From Dehalococcoidia bacterium (GTDB lineage Bacteria > Chloroflexota > Dehalococcoidia > Bin125), in assembly GCA_022822855.1 (NCBI GenBank), contig JAJDYG010000040.1:88556-152555 (forward strand): 64,000 bases of DNA, given 5' to 3'. This document shows, piece by piece, positions 7,928 through 60,856 of this stretch. Below the pieces are notes generated by a model. The model was not told the origin of the DNA. It did no database searches and saw only the letters and a list, made by a program, of their open reading frames with translations. Position 1 is the stretch's first letter; the number at the start of each line of letters is the position of its first letter. Position numbers and translations under genes: made by a program.

Positions 7928-8770
7928 TTGAGTCGTTTGAGGGAGCGTCTGATGAGTACACCAATCCGCGTTCACGTCGTCGCCGGGGGATTTCCGCCGG
8001 GCAAGCATGCCGGACACGACATCGACTACGCGCGCATGCGCATTTTGATGGCCTTGCAATCGAACGAGAACGTCCACACGACCGTGAGCAGCGACTTCAC
8101 CGACTGCCACAAGTGGATCCGCGATGCGCACCTCTTGGTCTGCTACGTCGCCGGCCCGTTCGCGGACGAGTACCAGACCGGTGTGATCCGCGATTGGGTC
8201 GGCGACGGCGGACGCTGGCTGGCACTGCACGGCTCGTCGGGCGGGAAGGCGGAACGGATGGGTCGGGAGGACGGTCGCCGCCGACTGGTCAAGATGGACT
8301 ATCACGAGGCGCTGGGCGGGTTCTTCATGACCCATCCGCCGATCCGCGAGATGGACGTGAAGGTCGCCGACCACAATCATCCGCTGACCTACAACCTGCC
8401 CGCCAGCTTCCCGGTCCAGGATGAGCCCTACATGGTCGAGGTGATCCATTCCGACACGCAGGTGCTGCTGACGACCGAGGACATCGACTCGCCGCCTTAC
8501 GTGGATGAGATTTACGGCGGCGACCTGTCACTGCTGCCCGATGGCAAGTCGCACGCGCTCGGGTTCGCGCGCAAGGTCGGCGAGGGTGAAGTCGCGTACA
8601 TCTCGCCGGGACACTGTCATACGCCGTTGACCAATGGCCAGCAATCCGTTCACGAGAGCATCTCGCCTGACGGCACCGTGCCGCTGCATTTCCGCGGGCC
8701 CTGGGAGACCGAGCCGTACGAGCGGTTGCTCAAGAACGCGATCGATTGGGGCACCGGTGTCAACGGTTAG
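7928..8770 (+). CDS. ThuA-like (trehalose-utilisation) class-I glutamine-amidotransferase-fold protein
   Basis: 280 aa; IRVHVVAGGFPPGKHAGHDID, WLALHGSSGG, FFMTHPPI are ThuA-family features. The true start may be the second ATG (about 7952). Confidence 0.65.
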   Translation: MSRLRERLMSTPIRVHVVAGGFPPGKHAGHDIDYARMRILMALQSNENVHTTVSSDFTDCHKWIRDAHLLVCYVAGPFADEYQTGVIRDWVGDGGRWLALHGSSGGKAERMGREDGRRRLVKMDYHEALGGFFMTHPPIREMDVKVADHNHPLTYNLPASFPVQDEPYMVEVIHSDTQVLLTTEDIDSPPYVDEIYGGDLSLLPDGKSHALGFARKVGEGEVAYISPGHCHTPLTNGQQSVHESISPDGTVPLHFRGPWETEPYERLLKNAIDWGTGVNG

Positions 8771-10286
8771 CCCCAAGGAGACCGTTTCCCAAGCGGATCT
8801 GGAGAATCTGGCCGAACTGCGGCGTCGACGGGACCAGTTTTTCGCCCCCAATCCGGAAGGCGACGAGCGCGCCCACAGCCGTGGCTTGCTGACTGCGAAC
8901 GAGCGGATCGAACTGCTGCTCGATCCGGGCAGCCAGTGGGCGTTCAGCTATGGGCTCGGACCGACTCCGCTCCAACTTGGCTTTGGCGAGATCCACGGTC
9001 GGCCGGTGCTGTACAAAGCGCACGATTCGTCCGCTGGAGCGGGCGCCTACAACCTGCGCTCGCGGGTCAACATGCGCGCCGTCGGACACATCGTCGACAA
9101 GGCCGCGCTGCCCATGTTCTACCTCTTCCAGGGAGCGGGCGGGCAGATCGAGGACCACGTCATGTCTTCGGGCTTCTCCGCCGTCGGCGGCCAGAACGTG
9201 GGCGCGCGCTCGAGCGTGCCCCGACGAGGCGGCGTGTTCACGGCGATCCTGGGCAACTCGTTCGCGCCTTGGGCAGCGTCGGTAGCCGATTTTTCGGTGA
9301 TGACGCCTCGGGCGACCGCGACGTTTGTCAGCCCGTTCATCATCGAGTTCGCTACCGGAAAACGCCCCGACCTCTACGAGATGGGCGGCGTCGACGTCCA
9401 CACCAAGCTGACCGGCCAGATCTGTCGTCGCGCAGAGGACGAAGCCGAAGCAATGGAAACACTGCGCACCTGCTTCTCCTACCTGCCCGGCCATGCCTTT
9501 GAGTCCGCGCCGCGGATCATGAGCGGCGACCCGAAGGACCGCTGCGACGAAGAGCTGCGCACGTTGGTGCCGAAGTATCCGAACCGGCCCTACGAAGTTC
9601 GCAAGATCATCGAGCGGGTCGTCGACAGGGGCAGCTTCTTCGAGTGGCAGCCTGAGTTCGGGATGAACCTGGTGACGGGATTCGCCCGGCTCGATGGTCA
9701 CACCATCGCGATCATGGCGAATCAGCCGAAGGTGCGCGGTGGGGCGATCGACATGAATGCTCTGTTCAAAGCGCGGAGGATCGTCAAGACGGCGCGGACC
9801 TTCTCGCTGCCGCTACTGACCTTCTGCGACACGCCGGGGATCATGACGACGCAAGAAGAGGAGCACAAGGGTCTGCTGACCGAGACCACGGTCTACATCT
9901 CGGAGAAGATGGAGTCGGAAGTGCCGACCGTCTGTGTGACGCTGGGTAAGGGCATCGGGATGGGCTACTTCATCATGGGTTGCAGCGATCCCGAGGCGAT
10001 CACGCTCTCCTGGCCAACGACGCAGATTGCCTACCTGGGCCCCGAGGGCGGCGCGGCGGTCGTGCATCGCAAGAGGCTGGCGGAAGTTGAAGAGCCGGAC
10101 GATCATCGTCTGATGCTGGATGAGCTGGCCGAACCCTTCCGCCGCAACATGAACCCCTGGCGCGGCGCTCAGATGGCGACGATCGACAACATCATCGACC
10201 CCGCCGAGACGAGGCCGCGCGCGATCCAGGCGTTCGATGCGCTGCGGCGCAAATCCGGCTCGCGAGGACGAGGAGGACGCAGGTGA
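8757..10286 (+). CDS. Acyl-CoA carboxylase carboxyltransferase (beta) subunit, PccB/AccD-like
   Basis: ORF 8634..10286 overlaps ThuA by 137 nt at its ATG. The in-frame GTG at 8757 gives VSTVSPKETVSQADLENLAELRRRRDQFF...RGLLTANERIELLLDPGSQW, the canonical CT N-terminus, followed by a full CT domain. Confidence 0.75.
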   Translation: MSTVSPKETVSQADLENLAELRRRRDQFFAPNPEGDERAHSRGLLTANERIELLLDPGSQWAFSYGLGPTPLQLGFGEIHGRPVLYKAHDSSAGAGAYNLRSRVNMRAVGHIVDKAALPMFYLFQGAGGQIEDHVMSSGFSAVGGQNVGARSSVPRRGGVFTAILGNSFAPWAASVADFSVMTPRATATFVSPFIIEFATGKRPDLYEMGGVDVHTKLTGQICRRAEDEAEAMETLRTCFSYLPGHAFESAPRIMSGDPKDRCDEELRTLVPKYPNRPYEVRKIIERVVDRGSFFEWQPEFGMNLVTGFARLDGHTIAIMANQPKVRGGAIDMNALFKARRIVKTARTFSLPLLTFCDTPGIMTTQEEEHKGLLTETTVYISEKMESEVPTVCVTLGKGIGMGYFIMGCSDPEAITLSWPTTQIAYLGPEGGAAVVHRKRLAEVEEPDDHRLMLDELAEPFRRNMNPWRGAQMATIDNIIDPAETRPRAIQAFDALRRKSGSRGRGGRR

Positions 10287-10330
10287 CGACCAGATCCAAG
10301 CGACACGTCAGTCCCGAGAAAAACCTGACC

Positions 10331-11716
10331 ATGGCCGAACGCCTGGAGCGTGTCGATCAGGAGCGGGCCCATATCGACGCGTTCGACCGCGACCGCGAGC
10401 TGCAGCCCGGTCAGCTGACTCCGCGCGCTCGGATTGCGGCGCTGGTCGATGAGGACTCGTTCCTGGAAATCGGGGCGTTCGCCAAGAGTCAGCATCGCGA
10501 CGTGGCTGCGGAGACTCCAGCTGACGGGGTGATCACGGGCTACGCGGAGATCGATGAGCGGCGCGTCGTCGTGCTGGCCGAGGATCCGGTCGCGCTGGCT
10601 GCAACCGATGCGCAGGTCGGCAAGAACAAGCGCAACCGGATGATCTCGAACGCGATCTATCGTCGCTTGCCGATCGTCTACCTCGCCGACGGCACACCAG
10701 AGGAGTCGCCAGAGTTCGACATGCACCGGGGTTTCCTGCTCAGCCGGGTGGCTGATCAGCTTCCGGCTCGCGACATCGCCGAGCGCGAGGCGCCCTTGGT
10801 CACGGTCGCCTGCGGGATGTGCGCGGGGCAGAACAGTTCGCTGGCGGTGAGGTCGGACCTGCTCGTCGCGACCACGCATGCGCGCTTCGGAGCGTCCGAC
10901 GGATCTCCTGACGCCGTGGCCGACGTGGTGCTCGGGAGCGACGCCGAGGCCATCGCTGCGGCTCAGCGCTTTCTGAGCACGCTGCCGGAGGAGTTGGATA
11001 CGCCGCTCGAGCCGCTGACTTACAACCCCGCCGGACCGACGAACATTCTGCTCGACGAGTACATGGATGCGACGCCGGAGGAACAATTCGAGTCGATCTT
11101 CGACGGCGAAGGGGCGGTGTTGTTGACTGAGATCGAATCGAATTGTGTCGTCGGTCTGGGACGGATCGAGGGTTTCCCGGTCGCATTCGCGTTGACCGGC
11201 GGTTCCCCCCGCGCCTCGCTGACCACGACGGACATGAAGCGGATTGCGAAAGCCGCCTCGTGGAGCGCGGATTATCAGATCCCGTTCATCTCCACGCAGG
11301 ACACGCTCGGCTACGACCCCTCCGATGCAGCAACGGCGGAGTTCATGTTCGCCGCCGCCCGCGCCGTCGAGTCGTTGCGGGCCTCGCACGCTGCCAAGAT
11401 CACGATCATCACCGGCTGGGGTCACGCGCTCGGCGACTTCGCGCTCGGCGGCCTGGGCACCGGCTTCGATTTCATCTGGTCCTGGCCCTCGGCCCGACTG
11501 GCCGCGACCGATAGTCCCGGCTATCTGGCTCGCGACCCGGAGTCACCGCCCTCGGAAGGGCCCTGGGAGGCAGCGGAGTTGGGGTTGGTCTCGGAGATGA
11601 TCACGCCAGGGGATTTGCGAGAGTGGCTCGCTCGGGCGCTGCGATTGCTCGGACCCGGAAGGGCGCTGCCGGCCGCCCACTACGACCGCGGCCAGCAGAT
11701 CCACGACATGACATAG
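10331..11716 (+). CDS. Divergent carboxyltransferase-domain paralog (possible second CT subunit, or a non-catalytic partner)
   Basis: MAERLERVDQERAHIDAFDRDRELQPGQLTPRARIAALVDEDSFLEIG repeats the CT N-terminal pattern. The alternative GTG start at 10283 overlaps the upstream stop (GTGA). About 460-477 aa, with markedly diverged internal motifs. Confidence 0.6.
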   Translation: MAERLERVDQERAHIDAFDRDRELQPGQLTPRARIAALVDEDSFLEIGAFAKSQHRDVAAETPADGVITGYAEIDERRVVVLAEDPVALAATDAQVGKNKRNRMISNAIYRRLPIVYLADGTPEESPEFDMHRGFLLSRVADQLPARDIAEREAPLVTVACGMCAGQNSSLAVRSDLLVATTHARFGASDGSPDAVADVVLGSDAEAIAAAQRFLSTLPEELDTPLEPLTYNPAGPTNILLDEYMDATPEEQFESIFDGEGAVLLTEIESNCVVGLGRIEGFPVAFALTGGSPRASLTTTDMKRIAKAASWSADYQIPFISTQDTLGYDPSDAATAEFMFAAARAVESLRASHAAKITIITGWGHALGDFALGGLGTGFDFIWSWPSARLAATDSPGYLARDPESPPSEGPWEAAELGLVSEMITPGDLREWLARALRLLGPGRALPAAHYDRGQQIHDMT

Positions 11717-11783: not shown

Positions 11784-12608
11784 ATGACCTACACCGCCGT
11801 CGAGTTTGAGACCAACGGACCAATCGCCACGATCACGATGGATCGACCTGAGAAGCGCAACGCGCTCAACCACGCCCTGCTCGACGACCTGCTCGCCGCG
11901 CTGAACGAGGTCGCCGAGGACGACTCGCTCAAGGTCGCCATCCTGCGCGCCAACGGGCCAACCTTCAGCGCCGGCTATGACATCGACGGCAGCCCGTACA
12001 TCAATCCTCCCGACGGCGGGACGGAATGGAACATTGTCAACGGACACAAGCATCAGCGGATCATGCGCGGCATCTACGAGGCGATCTGGGACAACCCCAA
12101 GGTGATCATCGCCCAGATTCACGGTCACGCGATTGCTGGCGGGATGTACATCTCCATGCTCTGCGACCTCGTGGTCGCGGCAGAGGACGCCAAGATCGGC
12201 GAACCGTACATGCGTATGGGCGGCGCCAGTTCGATTCCGTTCTGGAGTTACCTAGTCGGACCGCGTCGAGCCAACGACATGCTTTTCACCGGCCGCGTGC
12301 TCTCGGGCAAGGAAGCCGAAGAGTGGGGTCTGGTCACGCGCAGCGTGCCCGCAGCGGAGCTGGACGAGACGGTGCAGGCGATGGCCCAGAGCGTCGCCGA
12401 AGCACCGCTGGCCAGTCTGCTGACCAAGAAGGAGATGTGGCACACGCAGGCGGACATGCTCGGCTGGGGCGCGCAGTTCCGCTACACGACCAGCCTCAAC
12501 TCGTGGCTTCGGATGGCTCCGCCGCCGCCCGACAGCCGAGGCGGCATGCGCGATTTCATGAACGAACGCAAAGCCCAGCAGGCACGCGGCGAGTCGACCG
12601 ATTACTAG
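11784..12608 (+). CDS. Enoyl-CoA hydratase/isomerase (crotonase) family protein
   Basis: IATITMDRPEKRNALN, KVAILRANGPTFSAGYDI and IAQIHGHAIAGGMYISMLCDLVVAAEDAKIG form the crotonase fold. Confidence 0.8.
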   Translation: MTYTAVEFETNGPIATITMDRPEKRNALNHALLDDLLAALNEVAEDDSLKVAILRANGPTFSAGYDIDGSPYINPPDGGTEWNIVNGHKHQRIMRGIYEAIWDNPKVIIAQIHGHAIAGGMYISMLCDLVVAAEDAKIGEPYMRMGGASSIPFWSYLVGPRRANDMLFTGRVLSGKEAEEWGLVTRSVPAAELDETVQAMAQSVAEAPLASLLTKKEMWHTQADMLGWGAQFRYTTSLNSWLRMAPPPPDSRGGMRDFMNERKAQQARGESTDY

Positions 12609-15379: not shown

Positions 15380-16663
15380 ATGACTACTCCATCCACCCAA
15401 GACCTGCTCGCCCGCCGGGAACGGCTGCTCGGAGCGGGCGTCGCCACCTTCTACGAGAATCCCGTGCACATCGTGCGCGGCGAGGGCGTCTGGCTCTACG
15501 ACGCCGACGGCCGCCGTTATCTCGACCTCTACAACAACGTGCCCTGCGTCGGCCACGCGCATCCTCGCGTCGTCGAGGCGATGCAGCGCCAGACCGAGAC
15601 GCTCAATGTCCACTCGCGCTACCTGCACGAAGGCATCCTCGACTACGCCGAACACCTGACCTCGCTGCACGCCGATCACATCACGACGGCCGTGTTCACC
15701 TGCAGCGGCACGGAGGCGAACGAGGTCGCGATCCTGATGGCCCGGGCCGCGACCGGAGGCCGAGGTCTGATCTACACGCAGGCCGCCTATCACGGCAACT
15801 CGACCGAGGTGCGCAAGCTCTCGCGGTTGCGCGGCGACAACGAGCCCGAGTTCCGCTCGATTCCCGTGCCGCAGCGCTACCGGCCGATCGAGGATGGCCT
15901 TGACGACAGCGCGCTGACCGATGCGTATCTGTCTCGGTTGCAGGCCGAGATCGATGGTTTCGCCGCCGATGGGATTCCCTTTGCGGGGATGATGGCCTGC
16001 TCGATCCTCGCCAACGAAGGATTGCCCGACATCCCGCCTGGTTTCATGGGGCGCGCGGCCGATCTGGTGCGCGAAGCGGGCGGCGTGTTCATCGCCGACG
16101 AGGTGCAGGCCGGCTTCGCCCGCTCGGGCAACTGGTGGGGCTACGAGACGACGGGGGTGACGCCGGACATCGTCAGCATGGGCAAGCCGATGGGCAACGG
16201 CCTCCCGCTCGCCGGCGTGGTTGCGTCGAGGGAGATGGTCGACACCTTCCGCCAGAGAACCCGCTACTTCAACACTTTCGCCTCGAGCCCGCTGCAAGCC
16301 GCCGTCGGACAGGCCGTGCTCGACGTGATCGAGGACGAGGGGCTGGTCGAGAGTGTGGCCGATGTCGGCGGATATCTGATCGACAACCTGCGCTCGTTGC
16401 AGGAAAGCTGCGAGCCGATGTCGGATGTGCGCGGGCATGGGTTGTTCATCGGCATGGAGTGGGTCAAGGATCGCGAGAGCAAGGAGCCGGATCCCGAGGG
16501 CGCGGAAGTGATCGTCAATCGCCTTCGCGATACGGGATTCCTCATGGGCCGCGCCGGTGAACACGGCAATGTGCTCAAGGTGCGTCCACCGCTGGTCCTT
16601 AAGCGCGAGCAGGCCGATATGTTCCTCGAAGCGTTCGAGACAGCGATCGCCGAACCGACCTGA
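15380..16663 (+). CDS. Class-III (ornithine/GABA-type) PLP-dependent aminotransferase-fold enzyme; possibly a phospho-lyase (AGXT2L-like) given the adjacent kinase.
   Basis: Start at ATG 15380 (MTTPSTQDLLARRERLL...). Class-III AT features: LYDADGRRYLDLYNNVPCVGHAHPRVVEAM, CSGTEANEVAILMARAATGG, IADEVQAGFARSGNWWGYE, SMGKPMGNGLPLAGV. The 468 nt upstream of the ORF-track start are rejected as leader. Confidence 0.8.
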   Translation: MTTPSTQDLLARRERLLGAGVATFYENPVHIVRGEGVWLYDADGRRYLDLYNNVPCVGHAHPRVVEAMQRQTETLNVHSRYLHEGILDYAEHLTSLHADHITTAVFTCSGTEANEVAILMARAATGGRGLIYTQAAYHGNSTEVRKLSRLRGDNEPEFRSIPVPQRYRPIEDGLDDSALTDAYLSRLQAEIDGFAADGIPFAGMMACSILANEGLPDIPPGFMGRAADLVREAGGVFIADEVQAGFARSGNWWGYETTGVTPDIVSMGKPMGNGLPLAGVVASREMVDTFRQRTRYFNTFASSPLQAAVGQAVLDVIEDEGLVESVADVGGYLIDNLRSLQESCEPMSDVRGHGLFIGMEWVKDRESKEPDPEGAEVIVNRLRDTGFLMGRAGEHGNVLKVRPPLVLKREQADMFLEAFETAIAEPT

Positions 16664-16667
16664 TTCG

Positions 16668-17669
16668 ATGCCCGAGCCGACGAATCTCAGCGACGCCGAT
16701 CTGTATGCGATCGCGCGTCAATCCCTGCCGCGCTGGGGACTGAGACCGGACGCGATCGAGTTGGTCTCACGCAGCGAGAACACGGTCTTTCGGCTCGACA
16801 TGCCCGATGGACAGCGCTACGCGCTGCGGATTCACCGCCCGGGCTATCACACGCTGCCCGAGCTAGAGTCGGAGCTGCTCTGGACCCAGGCGCTCAACGA
16901 AGCTGGCATTCGCGTGCCGGTCGGCGTGCAAACCCTGGACGGTCCCGGATACGCCACGATCGCGACGCCGGACGGCGAGTCGAGCCGCGCCGTCGGACTG
17001 GTCAACTGGCTCGATGGCGAGCTGCTGAGTTCGGTGATCGAAGCGGAAACGGATGAGCCAACGATCGTCGAGCACTTTCGTCAGATCGGACCGGTGCTCG
17101 CCGCCATGAACAACCAGGCCAGCGATTGGACCCCTCCGGCCGGGTTCACGCGTCATGCCTTCGATGTCCCCGGCTATGTCGGCGAGTCGCCATTCTGGGG
17201 CCGGTTCTGGGATGTACCGCCGCTCACGGCGGCACAGCGTGAACTGCTCGCCGGAGCGCGCGAGCAGATTCGTCAAACGCTGAACGAGTACGGCAAGGAT
17301 CGCGGCACGTACTCGATGATTCATGCCGACTTGCACGCACACAACATTCTGATCGACCCGTCTGGCGCGTTGCAGGCGTTCGACTTCGACGACGCCGGAT
17401 TCGGCTGGCATCAGTACGACCTGGCGGTTGTGTTGTTCGGACTCGAGGAACTGCCGTACTTCGACGCGATCGCCGATGCAATCGTGGCCGGTTATCGCTC
17501 GATTCGGCCCTTCAGCGACGAAGCGCTGTCGCTGCTGCCGCTGTTCCTGTTGATTCGCCGGCTGGTGCTGATCTCCTGGCAGTGGGATCGGCCGGAGTTG
17601 GGCCGGCGAAACGGACTGGACGCCTACATCGCGGACGCCTGCGAGCGGGTCGAGGACTTTGCCTTCTAG
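16668..17669 (+). CDS. Aminoglycoside-phosphotransferase (APH)-fold small-molecule kinase (hydroxylysine-kinase / homoserine-kinase-II-like)
   Basis: ATG at 16668 lies 4 nt after the aminotransferase stop (translational coupling). IHADLHAHNILIDPSGALQAFDFDDAGFGWHQYDLA is the APH catalytic/Brenner motif. Confidence 0.75.
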   Translation: MPEPTNLSDADLYAIARQSLPRWGLRPDAIELVSRSENTVFRLDMPDGQRYALRIHRPGYHTLPELESELLWTQALNEAGIRVPVGVQTLDGPGYATIATPDGESSRAVGLVNWLDGELLSSVIEAETDEPTIVEHFRQIGPVLAAMNNQASDWTPPAGFTRHAFDVPGYVGESPFWGRFWDVPPLTAAQRELLAGAREQIRQTLNEYGKDRGTYSMIHADLHAHNILIDPSGALQAFDFDDAGFGWHQYDLAVVLFGLEELPYFDAIADAIVAGYRSIRPFSDEALSLLPLFLLIRRLVLISWQWDRPELGRRNGLDAYIADACERVEDFAF

Positions 17670-19358: not shown

Positions 19359-22300
19359 ATGCCCCCTAGCAAGCTGTTGATCGCCAATCGCGGCGAGATT
19401 GCCATCCGAGTGATTCGCGCCGCGCGCGAACTTGGCATCGGCTCGGTCGCGATCCACTCGCAGGACGATGCGAACTCGCTCCACGTCCGCTTGGCCGACG
19501 AGGCTGTCGCGCTGGACGGCGTTGGCGCTCGGGCGTACCTCGATGTCGAGGCAGTCATCGGCGCGGCCCTCGACTCCGGCGCCCACGCGCTGCACCCCGG
19601 CTATGGATTCCTGGCCGAGAGTGCGGACCTGTCGCGTCGATGCGACGAATCCGGAATCACCTTCGTCGGTCCGACGCCGGAGTCGCTAGAACTGTTCGGC
19701 GACAAAGCCCGGGCTCGGGCGCTCGCGGTTGAGCTGGATGTCCCCGTCCTCCCCGGCACCGAGGCTGCGGTAGACCTCGCAGAGGCGACTGAGTTCTACC
19801 GCTCCCTGGGCGACGGCGGCGCGATGATACTCAAGGCGATTGCCGGAGGCGGCGGACGCGGAATGCGCGTGGTCACGGCTGAAGAGCAGATCGCCGAGGC
19901 CTTCGAGCGCTGTCAATCGGAGGCTGCGACGGCGTTCGGCAACGGAGATCTGCTGGTCGAGCGGCTGATGTCACGCGCCAGGCACGTTGAGGTGCAGATC
20001 ATCGGGGACGGCACGGGAGCGGTCTCGCACATCGGCGAGCGCGAGTGCAGCCTCCAACGCCGACATCAGAAGGTGGTCGAGTGGGCGCCCAGCCCGTCGA
20101 TCTCCGACGAGACCCGCGAGCGCCTGACCGCCGCGGCCGTGCGTCTGGCGTCGTCGGACAACTACCGCAGCCTGGGCACGTTCGAGTTCCTGGTCAACGC
20201 CGACGACGAATCCGATCTCGCCTTCATCGAAGCCAATCCGCGCCTGCAGGTCGAGCACACGGTGACCGAAGAAGTGACCGGCGTCGACCTGGTCCGGGCG
20301 CAGCTTCGCATCGCTGGTGGAGAGTCGCTGCAGGCGGTTGGGTTGGCTCAGTCCGAAGTTCCGCCAGCCCGCGGTTTCGCAATCCAGGCGCGAGTCAACA
20401 TGGAGCGGATGGAGCCGAACGGCGACGTGCGTCCCTCGGGCGGGATGTTGACGACGTTCGAGCCTCCATCGGGTCCTGGAGTCCGCGTGGACACATACGG
20501 CTATCCCGGTTACACCACGAATCCCAACTTCGATTCCCTGTTGGGAAAGGTGATCGCCTACTCGGCTTCCGCGGACTTCCGCGATGTGATTGGCAGGACC
20601 CGACGAGCGCTGGCCGAGTTCCGGATTGAAGGCGTCGACGCCAATCTCTCCTTCCTCGAGCAGTCCCTGTCCCACGACGACTTCAGCTCCGGCGAGATTT
20701 ACACCCGCTGGGTCGACGACCACGTCGCGGAACTCACCGCAGAGCCGAAGATCGAAGCTCCGGTTCAGAACGGCACTTCCGACTCGCAGGCTGGACTGGC
20801 TGGAGCGCAACTCGACACGCTCGATCCGCTTGCCGGACTGAACTACTTCCGCGAGGGCTCCGGTACACGAGCCCAGCAGGGCGTCGCCACCGTGACGCCG
20901 GGGACGCAGCCCGCTCCAAACATCGTTGGCCCTCCGGGTACGGAACCGATCCCCTCGCCGCTGCAGGGCACGATCATCCAGATCCTGGTCGAGGAAGGCG
21001 ACGCGGTCCGCGAAGGCCAGCAGATGTTCGTGATGGACTCCATGAAGATGGAGCACGTCATCAACTCCGACATCGGCGGCTTCTTGCGCCAGCTCACCGT
21101 CGCAGTCGGCGACGTCGTCTACGAGGGACACCCGCTCGCCTTCATTGAGGAAGCTGACGTTGGCGACGCGATCACGGAAGAGCAAGAAGAGATCGACCTC
21201 GACTACATCCGTCCCGACCTGCAGAAACTGTTCGACAATCTCGACGCCGGCAAGGACGAGAATCGTCAGCCCTGGGTCGAGCGTCGGCACGCCAAGGGCA
21301 AAATGACCCAGCGGGAAAGCCTGGCCGAGCTGGTCGACGACGGTAGCTGGGTCGAAATGGGCGAACTCGTGCTTCCGGCCCGGCATCGGATCATGTCCTT
21401 CGAGGAGATGCGAGTTCGCGCCCCCGCCGACGGGATGATCACCGGGATCGGCACGGTCAACGGAAACCTGTTCGAGGAGCAGCGCGCCACGACGCTCGTG
21501 GCGATGTACGACGAGACCGTTTGGGCCGGCACCCAGGGCATGATGGGCCACCAGAAGACCGACCGCGTGATCAAGTTCGCCGACGAGCAGGCCACGCCGT
21601 TGATCGTCTGGGCCGAAGGCGCCGGCGGGCGCTCCGGCGACACCGATTTCTCCGATATCTCGTCGGCCGGACAGTGGGTGCCGACCTACGACATGATGGC
21701 CCGAATCAGCGGCACAGTGCCGATGATCGGGATCACGGCCGGCCGCACTTTCGCCGGTAATGCCTCGATCCTGGGTATCACCGACTGCATCATCGCCACT
21801 CGCGACGCCAACATCGGCATGGGCGGCCCGGCGACGATCGAAGGCGGCGGGCTCGGACTGTTCACGCCCGAGGAGATCGGGCCGATGTCCGATCTCGGAC
21901 CGGCCGGCAGCGTCGACATCCTCGTCGAAGACGAACACGAAGCGATCGCGGCGGCGAAGCAGTACCTCTCGTATTTCCAGGGCTCGATTCCAAGCTGGGA
22001 CTGCGTTGACCAGCGGCACCTGCGCCACGCGATTCCCGAGAACCGCAAGCGGCCGTTCAGCGTGCGTAAGGTGATCGAGCAGATGGCCGACATCGACTCG
22101 GTGCTGGAACTGCGCGGCGAGTTCGGCGTCGGGATCATCACTTCGTTGATCCGGATCGAAGGTCACCCGATCGGCGTGATCGCGAACAACAACCAGCACC
22201 TGGGCGGAGCGGTCGACAGCGACGGGGCAGACAAGCTCTGCCGCTTTGCCCAGCTCTGCGACTGCTTCAACATTCCCATCCTTGTGCTGGTCGACACGAC

Positions 22301-22769
22301 CGGCATGATGGTCGGTCCCGACATCGAGCGCACGGGCCTCGCCCGCAAGTGCAACAACGTCTTCGTCACCCTGGCCAACGCGCAGTCGCCGCGATTCACG
22401 ATCATCCTGCGCAAGTCGTACGGCCTGGCCGCGCAGGCGATGATGACCGGCAGCTCGCGAGCACCGCTCTTCGCCCTCGCCTGGCCGACGGCCGAGCTGG
22501 GCGGCATGAATCTCGAAGCGGCCGTCCGCCTCGGCAACCGGGCCGAGCTGGAGGCGATCGAGGACATTGAGGAGCGTGCCGCCCGCTATGAGGCGCTGGT
22601 CGCCAACGCCTACTGGAGAGGTAACGCGATCAACTCGGCCTCGGTCCACGAGAACGACGGCGTGATTGATCCGGCCGACACCCGCCGCTGGATCGTGCGC
22701 GGCCTGATGGCCTGCGAGAACCCCGAGCCGATCCGCAGAGGCCGTCGTCCCAACATCGACACCTGGTAA
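19359..22769 (+). CDS. Single-chain multidomain biotin-dependent acyl-CoA carboxylase (BC - BCCP - CT fusion; long-chain acyl-CoA carboxylase LCC-like)
   Basis: 1136 aa. The N-terminus KLLIANRGEIAIRVIRAAR... through the BC C-terminal region (EFRIEGVDANLSFL) is an ATP-grasp biotin carboxylase. The biotinyl domain with MDSMKMEHV carries the AMKM-type biotinyl-lysine motif. The C-terminal ~520 aa (RRHAKGKMTQRESLAELVDDGSW...) is a carboxyltransferase domain. The RBS aagaggac precedes the ATG. Confidence 0.85.
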   Translation: MPPSKLLIANRGEIAIRVIRAARELGIGSVAIHSQDDANSLHVRLADEAVALDGVGARAYLDVEAVIGAALDSGAHALHPGYGFLAESADLSRRCDESGITFVGPTPESLELFGDKARARALAVELDVPVLPGTEAAVDLAEATEFYRSLGDGGAMILKAIAGGGGRGMRVVTAEEQIAEAFERCQSEAATAFGNGDLLVERLMSRARHVEVQIIGDGTGAVSHIGERECSLQRRHQKVVEWAPSPSISDETRERLTAAAVRLASSDNYRSLGTFEFLVNADDESDLAFIEANPRLQVEHTVTEEVTGVDLVRAQLRIAGGESLQAVGLAQSEVPPARGFAIQARVNMERMEPNGDVRPSGGMLTTFEPPSGPGVRVDTYGYPGYTTNPNFDSLLGKVIAYSASADFRDVIGRTRRALAEFRIEGVDANLSFLEQSLSHDDFSSGEIYTRWVDDHVAELTAEPKIEAPVQNGTSDSQAGLAGAQLDTLDPLAGLNYFREGSGTRAQQGVATVTPGTQPAPNIVGPPGTEPIPSPLQGTIIQILVEEGDAVREGQQMFVMDSMKMEHVINSDIGGFLRQLTVAVGDVVYEGHPLAFIEEADVGDAITEEQEEIDLDYIRPDLQKLFDNLDAGKDENRQPWVERRHAKGKMTQRESLAELVDDGSWVEMGELVLPARHRIMSFEEMRVRAPADGMITGIGTVNGNLFEEQRATTLVAMYDETVWAGTQGMMGHQKTDRVIKFADEQATPLIVWAEGAGGRSGDTDFSDISSAGQWVPTYDMMARISGTVPMIGITAGRTFAGNASILGITDCIIATRDANIGMGGPATIEGGGLGLFTPEEIGPMSDLGPAGSVDILVEDEHEAIAAAKQYLSYFQGSIPSWDCVDQRHLRHAIPENRKRPFSVRKVIEQMADIDSVLELRGEFGVGIITSLIRIEGHPIGVIANNNQHLGGAVDSDGADKLCRFAQLCDCFNIPILVLVDTTGMMVGPDIERTGLARKCNNVFVTLANAQSPRFTIILRKSYGLAAQAMMTGSSRAPLFALAWPTAELGGMNLEAAVRLGNRAELEAIEDIEERAARYEALVANAYWRGNAINSASVHENDGVIDPADTRRWIVRGLMACENPEPIRRGRRPNIDTW

Positions 22770-22840
22770 GTCCGATGATTCCCGACTGACCGTAAACTCA
22801 GCAGCAAGACTGGGACTGCTTGAACGTGAGGAACAGACCA

Positions 22841-24010
22841 ATGGCCGAGCAAGAGTTGGGCGATGCCGTCATCCGTCGGCAGATCGGTGGCATGCCGGTC
22901 CCCGAGTTTTCCGAGACGGCCTGGACGGCACCGCCGCCGTTGTCCGAAGCGAGGGTTGCGGTCGTCACCTCGGCGGCGCTGCACCCTCGAGACGGCGAGG
23001 GATTCACCGTCAATGACGCCAGCTATCGCGCGCTTGACCATGACCAACGCCAGTTGGTGCTGGGACACTGGAGCCCGAACTTCGACCGTTCCGCCTTCGG
23101 CATCGACTACAACGTCGTCTATCCGCTGGCCCGTCTGGACGAGTTGGTGGAGCAGGGCGTCATCGGTTCCGTCGCGTCAAAGCACTACTCGTTTGCCGGC
23201 AATCAGCCCGACGATGTAGCCACGATCCGGCACGACTCCGCTCCCGCCTGCGCGGCCGAACTTAAGGCCGACGGAGTGGATGTGGTCTTCCTGACACCGG
23301 TTTGACCGCTTTGCACGCGTACCGTGTGTACGCTCGCCCACGTCTTCGAGGCCGCCGGTCTGGCCACCGTGACCATCTCAGCGATTCGCCAGGTCGCCGA
23401 ACGAATGCGGCCGCCGCGCGTCCTGCACGGCGAGTTCCCGCTCGGCAGGCCGCTGGGCAAACCCAACGACCCGGAGTTCCAGCACGACGTGCTCCGCCGC
23501 GCACTCTCATTGCTTGAGTGCGATTCCGGCCCGGTACTTGAGGATTATCCGGTGGAGGTCGTCGGCGAAGAGGAGCCATTAGGCTGCACGGTGCCGCCGC
23601 GCTTCGATCCCGAGTTGGCGCCCGCCGTCGACGAGGCGCGCGGACTGCGCAAGGCATACGATCGCGCAGTGGCTCGCCGTGGGATCAGCGATGTCGGCAA
23701 GGCGATCGACGCCGACGGCGTGCCAGCTGCGCTGGACGTGCTGCAGAACATCGTGAACGGCACACCCTGGAAGGAAGCCGGCATCCCCGGCGGCCACACG
23801 ACCGCGCTGGCCAACGACATTCGCGCCTACTACGAAGAGGCAGCTCTTGAACTGGCCGGTGCGCCGAACGCCGGCGGCCGCCAGGCCGAAGCCTGGTTCT
23901 TCGAGCGCACCGAGGCCGGCAAGCTCATCCTCGATGTCCGCAAGGCGCTCGCCTCCCAGGGTGCGCCCCAGCCGGTCTGGTTCTACATGGCGCCCATGCA
24001 CCGCAACTGA
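22841..24010 (+). CDS. Glycine/sarcosine/betaine/proline reductase selenoprotein B (GrdB/PrdB)-family protein with a putative selenocysteine encoded by the in-frame TGA at 23303-23305
   Basis: ORF-track entries 22820..23305 and 23324..24010 are in the same frame, separated only by a TGA. Read-through gives ...ADGVDVVFLTPV-U-PLCTRTVCTLAHVFEAAGLATVTISAIRQVAERMRPPRVLHGEFPLGRP. This aligns, from memory, with the GrdB Sec region ...DAVILTSTUGTCTRCGATMVKEIERAGIPVVH..., a UxxCTRxxC redox motif. A GAGGAAC RBS precedes the ATG at 22841. Confidence 0.65.
23306..23340 (+). promoter_or_regulatory. SECIS-like mRNA hairpin immediately 3' of the in-frame UGA
   Basis: GCGTAC(23317-23322)-CGTGT-GTACGC(23328-23333): a 6-bp perfect stem with a 5-nt G-containing loop, starting 12 nt after the UGA. 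This spacing is characteristic of bacterial SECIS elements. Confidence 0.4.
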
Positions 24011-37628: not shown

Positions 37629-38291
37629 GTGGACGTGGCGCGTGCGTACTATCCCGTCTTCTTCGACCTCAGCGGCCGCTCGGTGTTGGTTACCGGTGGA
37701 GGCCGGCTGGCGCTCGAGAAGGTCAGGGGCCTACTTGCCGCCGAGGCAAGGGTCACGGTCGTCGCATCCGCTCTCAACGAAGAACTGACCGCACTCCGCG
37801 ATGCCGGACAGATCAAGCACCTGGCTCGCGACTATCGGAATGGCGACATGCAGGGCCGAGCCCTGGTCATGGCTGCCGGCGACGACCCGTCCGACAACGC
37901 GGCGCTACATGCCGATGCCCGAGCCATCGGAGTCCCACTCAACGCCGCCGACGATCCCGCCAACTGCGACTTCATCCTGCCTGCGATCGTGCGCAAACCA
38001 CCGCTAACTCTGGCAATCTCGACCGGCGGCGGCAGTCCGGCCGTGGCTCGCCGAGTCCGGGAGGAACTGTCCGATTACCTGGACGCCGAAACTTCGAGCC
38101 TGGCCGAACTCGTCGCCGAGGTGAGAGCCGAGCTCCGGGAGCAAGGTTCATTCGGTTCGATTCCGTCTGAAGCTTGGCAGTCGGCCATGAACAGCCAGGT
38201 CAGAATTCTCCTCGCCCAACGCCGGCGCGATGAGGCCAAGGCGCTGCTGCTAGTCACACTCAATGAGGCGATCCCGGCCGCGGACGAATGA
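37629..38291 (+). CDS. Precorrin-2 dehydrogenase / sirohydrochlorin ferrochelatase (SirC/Met8, CysG N-domain-like)
   Basis: YPVFFDLSGRSVLVTGGGRLALEKVRGLLAAEARVTVVA is the Rossmann start of siroheme synthase N-domains. Confidence 0.75.
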   Translation: MDVARAYYPVFFDLSGRSVLVTGGGRLALEKVRGLLAAEARVTVVASALNEELTALRDAGQIKHLARDYRNGDMQGRALVMAAGDDPSDNAALHADARAIGVPLNAADDPANCDFILPAIVRKPPLTLAISTGGGSPAVARRVREELSDYLDAETSSLAELVAEVRAELREQGSFGSIPSEAWQSAMNSQVRILLAQRRRDEAKALLLVTLNEAIPAADE

Positions 38292-39193
38292 CGATGACCA
38301 GGACCCTCCTGCTCGGCGGCCGGGCGAGCAAACTCTCGCGGGTACAGGCCACACTGGCCTCAGAGGCCTTGGCGGCGATTGGGATCGCGACCGAATTTGT
38401 CCCGATCACGACCCAGGGTGACCGCGACCGCACGTCGAGTTTGCGCATGATCGGCGGACAGGGCGTATTCGTCCGGGCGGTCGAATCAGCATTGCTTGAC
38501 CATGAGATCGACGTGGCCGTGCACTCGGCCAAGGATGTCCCTCCAACCATCGCGGACGGCACATCGCTGGCTGCCTATCTGCCACGCGCCGATGTCCGCG
38601 ACGCCCTGGTCAGCCAGACCGGTGGCGGCCTAGTTGACCTGGCTGAGGGCGCGAACGTAGGTACGGGATCGCGGCGTCGAGCTGCCCAGTTGCTCCGCCT
38701 GCGTCCGGACCTGAGTGTCAGCGATATCCGGGGAAACGTCGACACCCGGATTGGCAAGGTCGAATCAGGTGAGTATGACGCCGTCGTCGTTGCAGCAGCG
38801 GGACTCCAGAGGCTGGACAGCCCTCCGTCTGAGCTGATTCCGATCGACCTGATGATGCCGTCCCCCGGACAGGGCGCACTGGTGATCCAATGCCGATCCG
38901 AAGATGCCAAACAGTTCTCGGCTGCGAACCACAAACCCACCGCCCAGGCCGTGTCGGCAGAACGAGCCATGCTGCGCTCCCTGGGAGCGGGCTGCTCGCT
39001 TCCCCTCGCCGCCCTCGGCGGCGCGCGAGGCGGTGAGGTCTTGCTCGCCGGACGCCTGCTGAGCGCGGATGGATCCGAGCGGATCGAGATACAACGCTCC
39101 GGCGAGGATCCGGAGGCGGTCGGGGCAGAGGTAGCGGAGACGCTGCTCGAACGCGGCGGCCGGCGTTTGATCGAAGAGGACGCGACCCCGTGA
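38288..39193 (+). CDS. hemC: Hydroxymethylbilane synthase (porphobilinogen deaminase)
   Basis: LLLGGRASKLSRVQA, AVHSAKDVP, IRGNVDTRIGK, GAGCSLPLAA (cofactor Cys). Confidence 0.9.
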   Translation: MTMTRTLLLGGRASKLSRVQATLASEALAAIGIATEFVPITTQGDRDRTSSLRMIGGQGVFVRAVESALLDHEIDVAVHSAKDVPPTIADGTSLAAYLPRADVRDALVSQTGGGLVDLAEGANVGTGSRRRAAQLLRLRPDLSVSDIRGNVDTRIGKVESGEYDAVVVAAAGLQRLDSPPSELIPIDLMMPSPGQGALVIQCRSEDAKQFSAANHKPTAQAVSAERAMLRSLGAGCSLPLAALGGARGGEVLLAGRLLSADGSERIEIQRSGEDPEAVGAEVAETLLERGGRRLIEEDATP

Positions 39194-40728
39194 GCTCCTA
39201 CCAGGCTGAGATCCATCCCGTGATTCTGGTCGGCGCGGGCCCCGGCGATCCACGGTTGATCACACTCGCCGGAGCCGAGGCGTTGCAACAGGCCGAGGTC
39301 GTCCTGCACGATCGCCTGGTCTCGCCGATGCTGCTCCAACTCGCCAAAGATGCGGAACTAGTCAACATCGGCAAGACGCCGGGCGGGTCAGCCACTCCCC
39401 AGGGCCAGATCAACCGCATGCTGATCGACTTCGCCCGTCGGGGCCGCCGGGTCGTGCGATTGAAGGGCGGCGATCCACTCGTTTTCGGACGCGGCGGTGA
39501 GGAAGCATCCGCTCTCACAACGTCGGGAATCCCGATCCAACTGGTGCCCGGCGTCTCCAGCGCGACCGCTGCCGCGGCGGCCTTTGGGATCGCGGTGACC
39601 GATCGGCGAGTTGCCTCCGCAGTAACCGTGGTGACCGGATCGGAAGGGGACGGAGACGCACCGCCCGTCGACTGGGAAGCCGTCGCCCGCGTCGGAGGCA
39701 CGATCGTTGTGATGATGGGCTGGCGCAACTTTGACGAGATCGCCCACCGGCTGATCGACGCGGGCTTGCCAGCGGATACACCGTCCGCCGCGATCGAGCA
39801 GGCCTGGACCACGTCCCAGCGCGCCACCTTCGCCCCGCTGAGCGAACTCAAGGGTTGCGCGGCCGAAATGCAGCCTCCGGTCACGGTCGTCATTGGAGCT
39901 GTGACCTCGTTGGCGACGCCGGAAGCATCCTGGAGCACCATGGGGCGGCGCGTACTCGTGACCCGGGCGGCTACCCAGGCGGACTCGCTAGTTGAGCGGC
40001 TGGGCGCGCTCAATGCAGAGGTCGTGCGATTGCCGACGATTGAGATCAAACCAGCGGGGCGCGAACCGATCGACAACACCATCCAGCGATTGGCGGACGG
40101 CCACTACGACATCGTGTGCTTGACCAGCGTCAACGGAGTGATCCAGCTCTGGGACGCGCTGCGCCGCAACGGACTCGACGCGAGGGCGCTGGCCCGGACG
40201 CGGGTCGCCGCGATTGGCAGCGAAACGGCGCGAGCGCTGGCTGAGCGCGGCCTCTCCCCCGATATCGTGGCAAGCCCCTTCACGTCGGCGGCATTGGCGG
40301 ATGCCATGACTCGCGAGGACCTGACCGGCAAACAGGTGCTGCTCGCTCGAGCTGCCCAGTCGAACCCACTGCTGACTGAGAGGCTCAAGGATGCCGGGGC
40401 CGAGGTGGATGATGTGGCGCTCTACGACATCGTCACGCCTCCGGCCGATCCGGAGGCGCTGGCCGAGCTGAAACGAGGCGTTGATGTGGTGACCTTGACA
40501 TCGCCCTCGACCGCCCGCGGACTGCTGGAGCTGGCCGGCGGCCTCGTCGATTTAGACTCTCTGCATACCGTCTGCATCGGCCCGGTCACCGCTGAGGCGG
40601 CCCGCCAGCTCGGTTTTCGCGTCGTGGCGAGTGCCGAGACGCACACCATCGAAGGCTTGGCCCAGGAGGTCGGGCGATACATCGCCAGCCTGGGACCACC
40701 CGGCGATCCGGAACTGGAATCAGCATGA
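39190..40728 (+). CDS. Bifunctional uroporphyrinogen-III C-methyltransferase / uroporphyrinogen-III synthase (CobA-HemD fusion)
   Basis: N-terminus VILVGAGPGDPRLITLAG...GGDPLVFGRGGEE (SUMT). The C-terminal half (VLVTRAATQADSLVERL...) is HemD-like. 512 aa. Confidence 0.85.
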   Translation: MSSYQAEIHPVILVGAGPGDPRLITLAGAEALQQAEVVLHDRLVSPMLLQLAKDAELVNIGKTPGGSATPQGQINRMLIDFARRGRRVVRLKGGDPLVFGRGGEEASALTTSGIPIQLVPGVSSATAAAAAFGIAVTDRRVASAVTVVTGSEGDGDAPPVDWEAVARVGGTIVVMMGWRNFDEIAHRLIDAGLPADTPSAAIEQAWTTSQRATFAPLSELKGCAAEMQPPVTVVIGAVTSLATPEASWSTMGRRVLVTRAATQADSLVERLGALNAEVVRLPTIEIKPAGREPIDNTIQRLADGHYDIVCLTSVNGVIQLWDALRRNGLDARALARTRVAAIGSETARALAERGLSPDIVASPFTSAALADAMTREDLTGKQVLLARAAQSNPLLTERLKDAGAEVDDVALYDIVTPPADPEALAELKRGVDVVTLTSPSTARGLLELAGGLVDLDSLHTVCIGPVTAEAARQLGFRVVASAETHTIEGLAQEVGRYIASLGPPGDPELESA

Positions 40729-41753
40729 CCAGCGCGCAGCACTCACTGAGCGGGATCGACGCCGGCAGCATCCCGAGCGCACACCGGATGCGCCGCCTGC
40801 GTCGCTCGGACGGCCTGCGGCGCATGGTGCGCGAGACCCGTCTGTCGCCCACGAACTTCATCTATCCCGTTTTTGCCACCACAGGACGCGGCGTGCGCGA
40901 GCCGATTCCCTCGATGCCAGGACAATCGCGTCTTTCGGTCGATCAGCTCGCCCAGGAAGCGGCAGAGCTTCGCTCACTGGATATCCCGGCGATCCTGCTG
41001 TTCGGCCTGCCGGACTCCAAGGATCCGGAAGGCAGCGGCGCCTGGATTTCCGACGGCGTCATCCAGCAAGCGACCAGGGCGCTCAAAGACGCGCAACCTG
41101 ACCTCGTCGTCGTGACCGACGTCTGCCTCTGCGAGTACACCGACCACGGCCACTGCGGCGTCCTCGATGCTGAGGGTTCGGTGATCAACGATGCCTCGGT
41201 CGAGCTTCTGGCGCGGACGGCGCTCAGTCAGGCCGATGCCGGCGCAGACGTGATCGCGCCCTCGGACATGATGGATGGGCGGATCGGCGTCATCCGCCGA
41301 GCCCTCGACCAGCAGGGCTTCGAAGAGCGGACGCTGCTCGCCTATTCGGCCAAGTTCGCCTCCGCCTTCTACGGTCCGTTCCGCGACGCCGCCGACTCGG
41401 CGCCCCAGTTTGGTGACCGGCGCGCCTATCAGATGGACCCGCCCAACGGCCGCGAAGCGATGCGCGCCATCGAGCGCGACCTCGCCGAAGGGGCGGATAT
41501 GGTCATGGTCAAACCGGCGCTGGCCTATCTCGACCTGGTGCGCGAGGCGCGGCAGCGATTCGACGCGCCGCTCGCCGCCTACAACGTCAGCGGCGAGTAC
41601 GCCATGCTCAAGGCAGCCGCCGCGAACGGCTGGATTGACGAGGAGCGGGTCGTACTCGAGACCCTGACCGGGATCCGTCGCGCCGGCGCCGACATGATCC
41701 TCACCTACCACGCCAAGGAGGCCGCCCGTTGGTTGGCCCGCCAGGGCGGCTGA
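40725..41753 (+). CDS. hemB: Porphobilinogen synthase (delta-aminolevulinate dehydratase)
   Basis: IYPVFA, DVCLCEYTDHGHCG, VMVKPALAYLD, YNVSGEYAM. Confidence 0.9.
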   Translation: MTSAQHSLSGIDAGSIPSAHRMRRLRRSDGLRRMVRETRLSPTNFIYPVFATTGRGVREPIPSMPGQSRLSVDQLAQEAAELRSLDIPAILLFGLPDSKDPEGSGAWISDGVIQQATRALKDAQPDLVVVTDVCLCEYTDHGHCGVLDAEGSVINDASVELLARTALSQADAGADVIAPSDMMDGRIGVIRRALDQQGFEERTLLAYSAKFASAFYGPFRDAADSAPQFGDRRAYQMDPPNGREAMRAIERDLAEGADMVMVKPALAYLDLVREARQRFDAPLAAYNVSGEYAMLKAAAANGWIDEERVVLETLTGIRRAGADMILTYHAKEAARWLARQGG

Positions 41754-47200: not shown

Positions 47201-47400
47201 ACGTGCGCGCCGGTAGATTCCCGGCCAATCCCGGAGACGGGGACCGACGAAGCAACGAGGCGAACTGCACGTACTGCAGCTTCGACGCCATCTGCCCGAT
47301 CGACCGCTCGGCCAACTGGAAACAAACGAGGCTCGACCCTGCCCTTGCCGGGTACATCGAGCTCTCCGATGGACCCCGCGAGGAAGCTGCACCAGCATGA
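44254..47400 (+). CDS. addB: AddB/RexB-type helicase-nuclease subunit with a degenerate (Walker-A-less) motor domain and a C-terminal RecB-fold nuclease with an Fe-S cluster Cys motif
   Basis: 1048 aa; no GxxxxGK[ST]. The C-terminus CPYRYFL ... LIVIDYKTG ... QLPIYAHAA ... NCTYCSFDAICP carries the AddB iron-staple Cys quartet and PD-(D/E)XK residues. Confidence 0.75.
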   Translation: MALTLSAHRYGQHAQTALTEAIDRLKTVGGRQDPLAPVTIVVPSSLAGYHIRRSLGRRPGGIVNVQVKPLKALLELIGSTSLTNAGRRPLPEAYRAETIRSVAERGAPVFGDVPIDGPVLRHLLQRFSEFDDCDQAQLDAIAAQPGVPAYLVGLYRQYLKETAEFYTDRDLLESATAALDGRPVVLRDIGSVVVYLPLDWSSAQKRFLRELSKLTEVDVLLGLTGDLDNVDQHVLDGWNIDDHRDPGPVPVAQEIVQSPDAEEEVRSAIRTIAESLLADQPTPLHQTAILYRQAEPYQRVCAEQLDAAGLTWNGRNSETLGQSIAGRTLDGLLGLISEATISWSNDVAPWLAAGPIRSATGELAATARWNQLARRANLHRDPDEWQTRLARYRATCVADLERLRRVGDESRPGRRPWIETEIREVDELSEFAGQLALFRHQTPSDASWSEYAALARSRLELLLGDRSAFTGQLTGDDDLQLARWDDVQNLLSELSWLDGLERATPQRFVSAARRGLERRIGHHQRYGDGLYVGPLHSAAGLQWDVVYIVGAAEKSLPQTRTDDPLLGDELRARASLPVASDHLRAERAGYLIALHSADRRVISYPRADMRAERAKLPGRWLLESATELNQGERIYASKIDRVSGEIVRATPSFERAVLSAGESADIQEFDLRSIRRVERPPDHHLAGPGTPLHRGFVQRFERRQPRLTRWDGLVSGGAPDALTAPHSAGALQDWATCPYRYFLGRVLGIEERDEPRDELQITALDKGSLVHDTLDQFFEEASTQPDPTRRWTEDERKRLEAIANAKLDEADQNGLTGRALLRRRDRQRMLDDLLTWLGKDDEHRSSAHARQIASELVFGRLPDSQGEVQFILDDGSLLLLRGVIDRVDRSDHDDRLIVIDYKTGAERPKMSELRKDPLVGGRYLQLPIYAHAARQVYGLEPAATVDTAYWYITERGQFRYNAVEWDEDNSARFRDAINLIAENVRAGRFPANPGDGDRRSNEANCTYCSFDAICPIDRSANWKQTRLDPALAGYIELSDGPREEAAPA

Positions 47401-60764: not shown

Positions 60765-60856
60765 AGCGCCGGACTCCTAGATAGAGAGGGTAGCGGTCAT
60801 CAACAGAACTGATGTACAATCCGGCCAGAGCGATAACATGCCGCAAAGGGAACATA

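Follow-up and report, generated by a model that had tools for sequence, protein, structure and literature searches.

In the Sargasso Sea metagenome, a 'proline reductase PrdB' with a UxxC motif (U, selenocysteine (Sec)) was the third most abundant selenoprotein family, with 42 Sec genes against a single Cys homologue (PMC1088965), and PrdB was again among the top families in the Global Ocean Sampling (GOS) survey, which counted 235 Sec and 110 Cys forms under pfam07355 (PMC2398784). Recent reviews list PrdB only as a subunit of the clostridial D-proline reductase, and our literature searches on PrdB-like or GrdB-like proteins and proline reductase in SAR202, sponge Chloroflexi and Acidimicrobiia turned up no work on the function of a stand-alone form. 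Here, we analysed a 64,000-nt stretch of the genome of a Dehalococcoidia bacterium (Chloroflexota; assembly GCA_022822855.1, contig JAJDYG010000040.1, positions 88,556–152,555 of the forward strand), hereafter called the window, whose own coordinates are used throughout. Our subject is a PrdB-like gene at 22841..24010 (+), which is listed as two adjacent open reading frames (ORFs). Judged from the sequence and its homologues, these are one 389-residue gene in which an in-frame TGA almost certainly encodes Sec. It is highly probable that this single gene encodes a Sec-containing protein of the GrdB/PrdB superfamily, belonging to a distinct, stand-alone PrdB-like subfamily and decoded by means of SelB and a hairpin.

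The ORF list holds the entries 22820..23305 (+) and 23324..24010 (+). The sequence-only reading had described them as lying in one frame and parted by nothing but the TGA at 23303–23305, and both the list and our translation bear this out: one gene has been cut in two. Translation of 22841–24010 gives 389 sense codons with this TGA as the sole internal stop, and the read-through peptide runs ...DVVFLTPV*PLCTRTVCTLAHVFEAAGLATV... across it; the stretch ...FLTPV*PLCTRTVCTLAHVFEAAG... is identical to the one given earlier. The predicted complete selenoprotein gene (22841..24010, +) thus comprises 389 codons and a terminal TGA (24008–24010), and aligns over its full length with Cys homologues of ~395 aa (42–54 % identity). 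The in-frame UGA (23303..23305, +) is the predicted Sec codon, residue 155, as TGA is conserved in orthologues and Cys stands there in distant homologues. The motif at this point reads U155-P-L-C158-T-R-T-V-C163, so that the UxxCTRxxC motif noted earlier is present; its third Cys, however, is not conserved, most Acidimicrobiales having Ser in its place and others Gly.

We prefer ATG 22841 over TTG 22820 as the start, because a Shine–Dalgarno-like GAGGA (22828..22832, +) lies 8 nt 5′ of the ATG and the N-terminus read from there aligns with homologues from residue 1. The GC1/GC2/GC3 coding signature (~0.7/0.47/0.8, typical of the genes of this genome) is kept on both sides of the internal TGA. 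The real terminator of the gene is also TGA, and therefore TGA serves as a stop in this organism, under the standard code.

The TGA codon is conserved far beyond this genome. Scanning one genome per GTDB species, we took the 80 closest species representatives, with lineages assigned by record titles: 16 loci from Dehalococcoidia/Chloroflexota (65–90 % identity) and 64 from Acidimicrobiales/Actinomycetota (59–65 %). All 80 loci, from two phyla, have TGA at the aligned codon. Orthologues of 83–87 % identity also occur on three closed Dehalococcoidia chromosomes (OZ219765.1, OZ247431.1 and OY820591.1). A scan of metagenomes, seeded with a Cys form, retrieved 80 loci, 79 with TGA and one with TGT, and the family motifs retrieve >550 loci in each collection (genomes and metagenomes). 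Among 17 full-length homologues (alignment A1), the same column holds Cys in 15, Ser in one and Ala in one; the Cys motif is CPxCxRT, and the Cys codon (TGT/TGC) was verified in the DNA of six independent distant lineages. The question raised by the sequence-only reading, whether orthologues carry Cys or TGA at this codon, is thus answered with TGA in genome and metagenome loci and Cys in distant homologues. Compared with the eleven closest relatives, the ratio of non-synonymous to synonymous substitution rates (dN/dS) is 0.04–0.10 upstream and 0.08–0.13 downstream of the TGA (dS 0.6–1.3; the downstream value leaves out one locus with a 3-nt indel), and the gene halves on either side of the TGA are under strong purifying selection. 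Residues +1 to +7 past the TGA (PLCTRTV) are nearly invariant, though the called downstream ORF would begin only at +7.

Three further observations concern this codon and its surroundings. The Val codon just 5′ of the UGA (23300–23302) is GTT in 75/81 sequences (0.38 bits), while nearby four-fold sites vary freely, suggesting that the 5′ context is under selection to favour Sec decoding or to prevent termination. At L171:3451–3453 (protein P0025), the active-site codon is TCA (Ser), which differs from TGA by a single base, and the hairpin is intact (6/6 pairs); this contig is apparently frameshifted near its 3′ end, so that the TCA has arisen by very recent mutation or through faulty sequencing. 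At L170:3448–3450 (protein P0081), the codon is GCT (Ala) and the hairpin has decayed to 3/6 pairs; this is seemingly a true variant that has lost its redox function or taken on another.

The hairpin in question is part of a selenocysteine insertion sequence (SECIS)-like element (23313..23337, +) with a 6-bp stem (23317–23322/23328–23333), a CGUGU loop (23323–27) and a 2-bp lower stem (23313–14/23336–37). The hairpin itself, GCGUAC-CGUGU-GUACGC, covers 17 nt at 23317–23333 behind an 11-nt spacer, its first base being the 12th nt after the UGA, exactly where the sequence-only reading had put it. RNAalifold, applied to 81 gap-free sequences, returned the proposed hairpin together with the lower stem, with standard pairs in 99.5 % of pair cells. 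The fourth stem pair (pair 24–34) is C-G in 48 sequences and U-A in 32, with no broken intermediate, and the third alternates between G-C and G-U. Third-position entropy among sequences encoding the same amino acid is 0.11, 0.28, 0.28, 0 and 0 bits at codons +4, +6, +7, +8 and +9, against 1.3–1.9 bits at typical four-fold sites; these low-entropy codons coincide with the 17-nt footprint of the hairpin, and the variable codon +5 (CGU/CGC) co-varies with codon +9. All six pairs are in register in 78/79 metagenome TGA forms, and the hairpin is in register in about 157/159 TGA forms overall. About ten loop variants were seen, every one of them with G at loop position 2. Because six independent Cys forms write the C-P-x-C-(T/S/P)-R-T peptide with other codons and retain 2–3/6 pairs in register, the hairpin tracks the TGA and not the protein sequence. 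The comparative tests (pairing, compensatory pair, synonymous suppression and loss in Cys forms) therefore agree with the earlier description of the hairpin as SECIS-like. A small apical loop containing G is a feature of bacterial SECIS elements (PMC1088965), and an 11-nt spacer has been used for an E. coli SECIS engineered behind a Sec codon (PMC8326192).

Profile searches of the read-through protein, with Cys put for the stop, relate both halves to the reductase B proteins. TIGR04483 (NCBIfam PrdB) matches residues 26–226 (model positions 18–219 of 238, E=1.9e-35), and the GrdB/GrdF/GrdH and TIGR01918 models match residues 18–222 (TIGR01918 itself 18–221); these matches cross the TGA, and the homology on both sides of the stop that the sequence-only reading had proposed was recovered. 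The match to PF07355 (GRDB) passes the gathering cut-off of 22 bits, with 26.8 bits for the read-through protein and 30.3 for the N-fragment alone, though it covers residues 19–152 (model positions 207–345 of 347) and ends three residues before Sec. The subfamily cut-off of TIGR01918 was missed (50.1 vs 65.45 bits), with only the C-terminal half of the model matched. By these profiles, we place the protein in the GrdB/PrdB superfamily, yet as neither PrdB nor GrdB.

Matches of two kinds were found among 5.8 billion proteins. The first consists of 228-aa fragments (63–98 % identity) that start just past the TGA, come from metagenome-assembled genomes of Chloroflexi/Dehalococcoidia and Acidimicrobiia and are mostly named 'hypothetical protein'. 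The second consists of full-length proteins of ~395 aa (43–53 % identity), labelled 'D-proline reductase PrdB' by JGI and 'glycine/sarcosine/betaine reductase selenoprotein B family protein' by NCBI. The protein of the window carries the hallmarks of the subfamily seen in alignments A1 and A3, namely (U/C)PxCxRT, FPLGRPLGKP, DIRxYYEEA and a helical C-terminal domain of ~155 aa, all in one chain of ~390 aa. A 1019-aa 'fusion' match (P0144) was set aside as a junk gene call.

Two domains can be delimited in the chain. The PrdB/GrdB-homologous alpha/beta domain (22892..23518, +; residues ~18–226) contains U155-x-x-C158 and is covered by TIGR04483 (26–226), TIGR01918 (18–221) and PF07355 (19–152). 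It is followed by a family-specific all-helical C-terminal domain (23543..24007, +; residues ~235–389). The last ~160 residues match no family model; this helical domain of ~155 residues is exclusive to the family, is always fused and matched no solved fold. A 50 %-identical Cys homologue (P0064) served as structure proxy for the full chain, while the C-terminal domain of the window protein was modelled directly. The AlphaFold2 model of P0064 (predicted local distance difference test score, 94) has a Rossmann-like fold. In this domain, we infer, a strand passes into a helix at the place of Sec155 and Cys158, which form a U-x-x-C redox pair. As a separate observation, the family profile at A3 positions 144–170 (window residues ~146–172) gave a non-significant match to the beta1-CPYC-alpha1 segment of glutaredoxin (VVFIKPTCPYCRRA vs VVLLTPVCPLCTRT, E~0.5), a resemblance that probably reflects convergence on a strand-CxxC-helix redox motif and not homology.

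Upstream of the gene, 71 nt away and on the same strand, lies a gene for a 1136-aa protein in which biotin carboxylase, biotin carboxyl carrier protein and carboxyltransferase are fused (19359..22769, +; as annotated with Pfam in L081, a 98 %-identical relative), and downstream lies a convergent acyl-CoA dehydrogenase gene. The location just past a single-chain carboxylase, to which the sequence-only reading had drawn attention, is confirmed here, but the adjacency occurs at 10/16 Dehalococcoidia loci and 0/64 Acidimicrobiales loci and is therefore lineage-specific synteny, not a feature of the family. Neither tblastn searches with the window neighbours, nor all-vs-all clustering of ORFs within ~7 kb, nor a Pfam census of the immediate neighbours (105 upstream and 111 downstream) revealed a conserved partner. 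The census found diffuse enrichment in acyl-CoA dehydrogenase (13 downstream, 3 upstream), AMP-binding (9) and sulfatase (7) families, besides fused carboxylases (6), enoyl-CoA hydratases (4) and a proline racemase (1/111, downstream). PrdA, GrdE, GrdA and PrdC are absent from these 216 neighbours, and no prdA or other prd gene was found in the ~7-kb clustering or in the window, though a distant genomic site is possible. The lack of grd partners in the window, stated earlier, thus holds in its Pfam scans and annotation and extends to the neighbours at the other loci. The contexts of Cys-form genes are equally variable, and the gene is a stand-alone unit in variable catabolic neighbourhoods.

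Some neighbouring genes deserve mention in their own right. Tandem carboxyltransferase-domain genes (8634–10286 and 10283–11716) and an enoyl-CoA hydratase gene (11784–12608) make up the segment 8634–12608; together with the fused carboxylase (19359–22769), this carboxylase-rich region suggests an island for acyl-CoA carboxylation or degradation. At ~15380–17669 (matching L081:2057–4346), a class-III aminotransferase-fold gene adjoins an APH-family kinase gene, a pair that we take to resemble the kinase and phospho-lyase pairs of amino-alcohol catabolism. Two distant relatives, L166 and L170, likewise have APH-family genes close to the PrdB-like gene, and L081 shares EthD and amidase genes with L166; the association is not general, being absent from the Acidimicrobiales loci.

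A number of results weigh against the proposed assignment and decoding. Folded as a single sequence, the 43-nt stretch is no better than its dinucleotide shuffles (z = −0.19), and of all TGA triplets in the window, 3.5 % are followed at a distance of 8–20 nt by a perfect 6-bp hairpin of some kind; the exact geometry occurs at 2/1726 triplets (0.1 %). Alone, the hairpin is weak evidence, and it is the comparative data that give it significance. The single-sequence minimum-free-energy fold is a competing 8-bp register with a 3-nt UAC loop (23312–23330), which other CGUGU-loop sequences can also adopt but most orthologues cannot; orthologues with CGUGA and other loops fold in the 6-bp register, which marks the conserved 6-bp/5-nt structure as the one under selection. 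Rfam gave no SECIS match, either for the whole window at gathering thresholds or for 23250–23420 at E≤10, and the covariation amounts to one pair and probably to few evolutionary events. The score for TIGR04483 falls short of its equivalog cut-off (122.4 vs 300 bits), as does that for GrdB (TIGR01917, 40.3 vs 602 bits; 40–49 vs 602–800 across GrdB/GrdF/GrdH). Single-sequence and profile searches of the PDB found no solved structure of any homologue, and the catalytic mechanism set out below is drawn by analogy only. Of the ~56 called genes of the window, all but about a dozen mostly short ORFs were covered: 30 were scanned against Pfam, and 12.6–29 kb was annotated via the precomputed Pfam table of L081; no SelA, SelB, SelD, PrdA or GrdE family appeared in these scanned or L081-annotated parts, which matches the earlier statement that selA, selB and selD are not in the window. 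ARAGORN found no tRNA in the window, and no tRNA-Sec lies within 10 kb of the gene in 60 loci. A tblastn search for SelD in the window and the loci, including all 159 TGA forms, gave no match with an E. coli SelD query, which is weak evidence.

What else might the TGA be? If a former Cys codon had been turned into a stop by mutation or misread in base calling, with the downstream part left untranslated, this would agree with there being a single in-frame stop, with the annotation by gene callers and NCBI of only a 228-aa 'hypothetical protein' and with the TCA of L171, whose frameshift-prone contig shows that errors occur. Such an accident would have had to strike the identical codon in 159 independent loci of two phyla, and it does not account for a downstream dN/dS of ~0.1, for an invariant peptide between the TGA and the GTG or for a co-conserved hairpin that the Cys forms lack; we consider it vanishingly improbable. 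The pieces shown by the ORF track and the public gene calls are exactly those of a natural split into a 154-residue PrdB-like N-fragment and a 228-residue protein starting at GTG 23324. However, that GTG falls within the hairpin loop and lacks a Shine–Dalgarno sequence, and the six codons between TGA and GTG would be non-coding although they spell the invariant PLCTRT with the resolving Cys158. The Cys homologues, moreover, are single chains, and Sec/Cys pairing at UxxC is a hallmark of selenoproteins, so a split gene is extremely improbable. SECIS-dependent recoding of the UGA to Cys or another non-Sec residue, by a tRNASec-like tRNACys(UCA) with a SelB paralogue or by near-cognate read-through, is a further formal possibility, in favour of which counts that no gene of the Sec machinery was found in the covered parts of the window. 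Systems of this kind (selC*/SelB*) do exist in nature, but selC* tRNACys is known from anaerobic Firmicutes, Thermodesulfobacteria, Nitrospirae and Proteobacteria and not from Chloroflexota or Actinomycetota (PMC7609411). A need for Cys alone would be met by TGT or TGC, as it is in the distant homologues, and that TGA and hairpin have been kept across deep divergence speaks for an advantage that only Sec provides; we hold such recoding to be very unlikely.

A different doubt concerns not the codon but the enzyme, which might be the B subunit of a true D-proline (or glycine, betaine or sarcosine) reductase whose PrdA/GrdE, GrdA and GrdC are encoded elsewhere in the genome. The best profile is indeed PrdB (TIGR04483, E=1.9e-35), JGI names the Cys homologues 'D-proline reductase (dithiol) PrdB' and a proline racemase is found among the 111 downstream neighbours. 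Set against this are the shortfalls in score given above (122 vs 300 bits for PrdB, 40–49 vs 602–800 for GrdB/GrdF/GrdH), the lack of PrdA, GrdE, GrdA and PrdC among the 216 neighbours and in the window, and the invariably fused 155-residue domain, which is absent from the 238-position PrdB model. To our knowledge, the hosts (sponge and marine Dehalococcoidia and Acidimicrobiales) are not Stickland fermenters, which we also count against this possibility. Overall, we judge a reductase B subunit unlikely and retain the reading of a stand-alone PrdB-like selenoprotein.

For such a stand-alone selenoprotein, established bacterial Sec biology would have SelB, carrying Sec-tRNASec, bind the hairpin on the translating mRNA and insert Sec at residue 155. 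By analogy with the D-proline and glycine reductases, the selenolate of Sec155 would then attack an electrophilic atom of the substrate. Resolution of the adduct by Cys158 would leave a selenenylsulfide, to be reduced again by a cellular dithiol system. D-Proline and glycine are unlikely substrates, because there is no pyruvoyl partner (PrdA/GrdE) and the extra helical domain is always present; more likely is some small organic molecule processed in variable catabolic islands with many acyl-CoA enzymes. Tentatively, and with less than even confidence, we propose a self-contained, pyruvoyl-independent selenoenzyme in which the helical domain supplies the pocket and the U-x-x-C pair reductively cleaves or reduces an organic substrate in aerobic or microaerobic heterotrophs of marine, sponge-associated and freshwater habitats. 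If this proposal is true, the GrdB/PrdB fold would have a new reaction class and the widespread 'D-proline reductase' label would be wrong. A confident model and variants with Sec, Cys or Ala are available, together with conserved residues, among which H76, S78, D82, R83, D89, N91, H115, R193, C249, E265, Y331 and W352 are invariant, and these frame the question of the reaction well.

The rest of the window is ordinary chromosome. It contains a sirohaem/haem cluster (37629–41753) of precorrin-2 dehydrogenase-like, hemC, fused cobA-hemD and hemB genes, dnaN (42790–43938), an AddAB-like helicase-nuclease pair (44254–50672), a gene for the flavin-dependent thymidylate synthase ThyX (58109–58942) and a C-5 cytosine DNA methyltransferase gene (60812–62023). 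Two other candidates for in-frame read-through were rejected. One, an in-frame TGA on the minus strand at 56957, is coding-like by GC-position statistics but lies in Arg/Pro-rich shadow-frame junk; the other, a same-frame pair around 50670, is two separate genes, encoding an AddA-like helicase and a DNA polymerase III delta subunit.

In public records, the gene and hundreds of its orthologues appear as a truncated GRDB fragment and a 228-aa 'hypothetical protein', and the (U/C)PxCxRT motif combined with the 11-nt-spaced 17-nt hairpin provides a simple rule by which such split gene calls can be mended. Liu et al. (1998) reportedly defined a 17-nt/11-nt minimal SECIS element. Like the minimal element of the E. 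coli fdhF type, the present one is a short intra-ORF stem-loop with a small G-containing apical loop and an upper hairpin 11 nt past the UGA; it differs in having a 6-bp stem with a 2-bp lower stem and in lacking an Rfam match, and SelB binding to it is putative.

PrdB of the Clostridium sticklandii/C. difficile type gives the best-scoring profile, has U-x-x-C at the equivalent place and likewise carries an intra-ORF SECIS just past its UGA. In contrast to it, the protein described here has an extra helical C-terminal domain of ~155 residues, its gene is found without PrdA, PrdC or other prd genes nearby and its hosts are Dehalococcoidia and Acidimicrobiales instead of Stickland-fermenting Clostridia. 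With GrdB/GrdF/GrdH (PF07355, TIGR01917/TIGR01918), it shares their C-terminal half (model positions ~204–412 of 431) and the common U-x-x-C-T-R, but the N-terminal ~200 residues of GrdB are absent, no grdA, grdC, grdD or grdE accompanies the gene, and the third Cys of UxxCxxC lies two residues further on (UxxCxxxxC), without being conserved.

The closest counterpart is the marine 'PrdB' UxxC family of the Sargasso Sea (2005) and GOS (2008) surveys, which is likewise related to PF07355, has Sec and Cys forms and is abundant in ocean metagenomes; the relatives of the present gene are likewise, for the most part, from marine, sponge and freshwater metagenomes. The comparison is with the published description, and identity with that family as one subfamily with the C-terminal domain is putative. 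Those papers classified the family by homology only and gave no function, partner analysis or family-specific SECIS. The gene belongs to this already catalogued kind of PrdB-like UxxC selenoprotein and is mis-annotated in its own lineage; a known phenomenon is confirmed and delimited, and no new kind of system is revealed. 'PrdB' ranks among the most abundant selenoproteins of ocean metagenomes, and the subfamily described here lacks the PrdA partner, carries a unique domain and occurs in hosts that are not known to ferment amino acids. What is added to the earlier surveys is a subfamily delimited by its extra domain, by the absence of partners and by a defined minimal SECIS.

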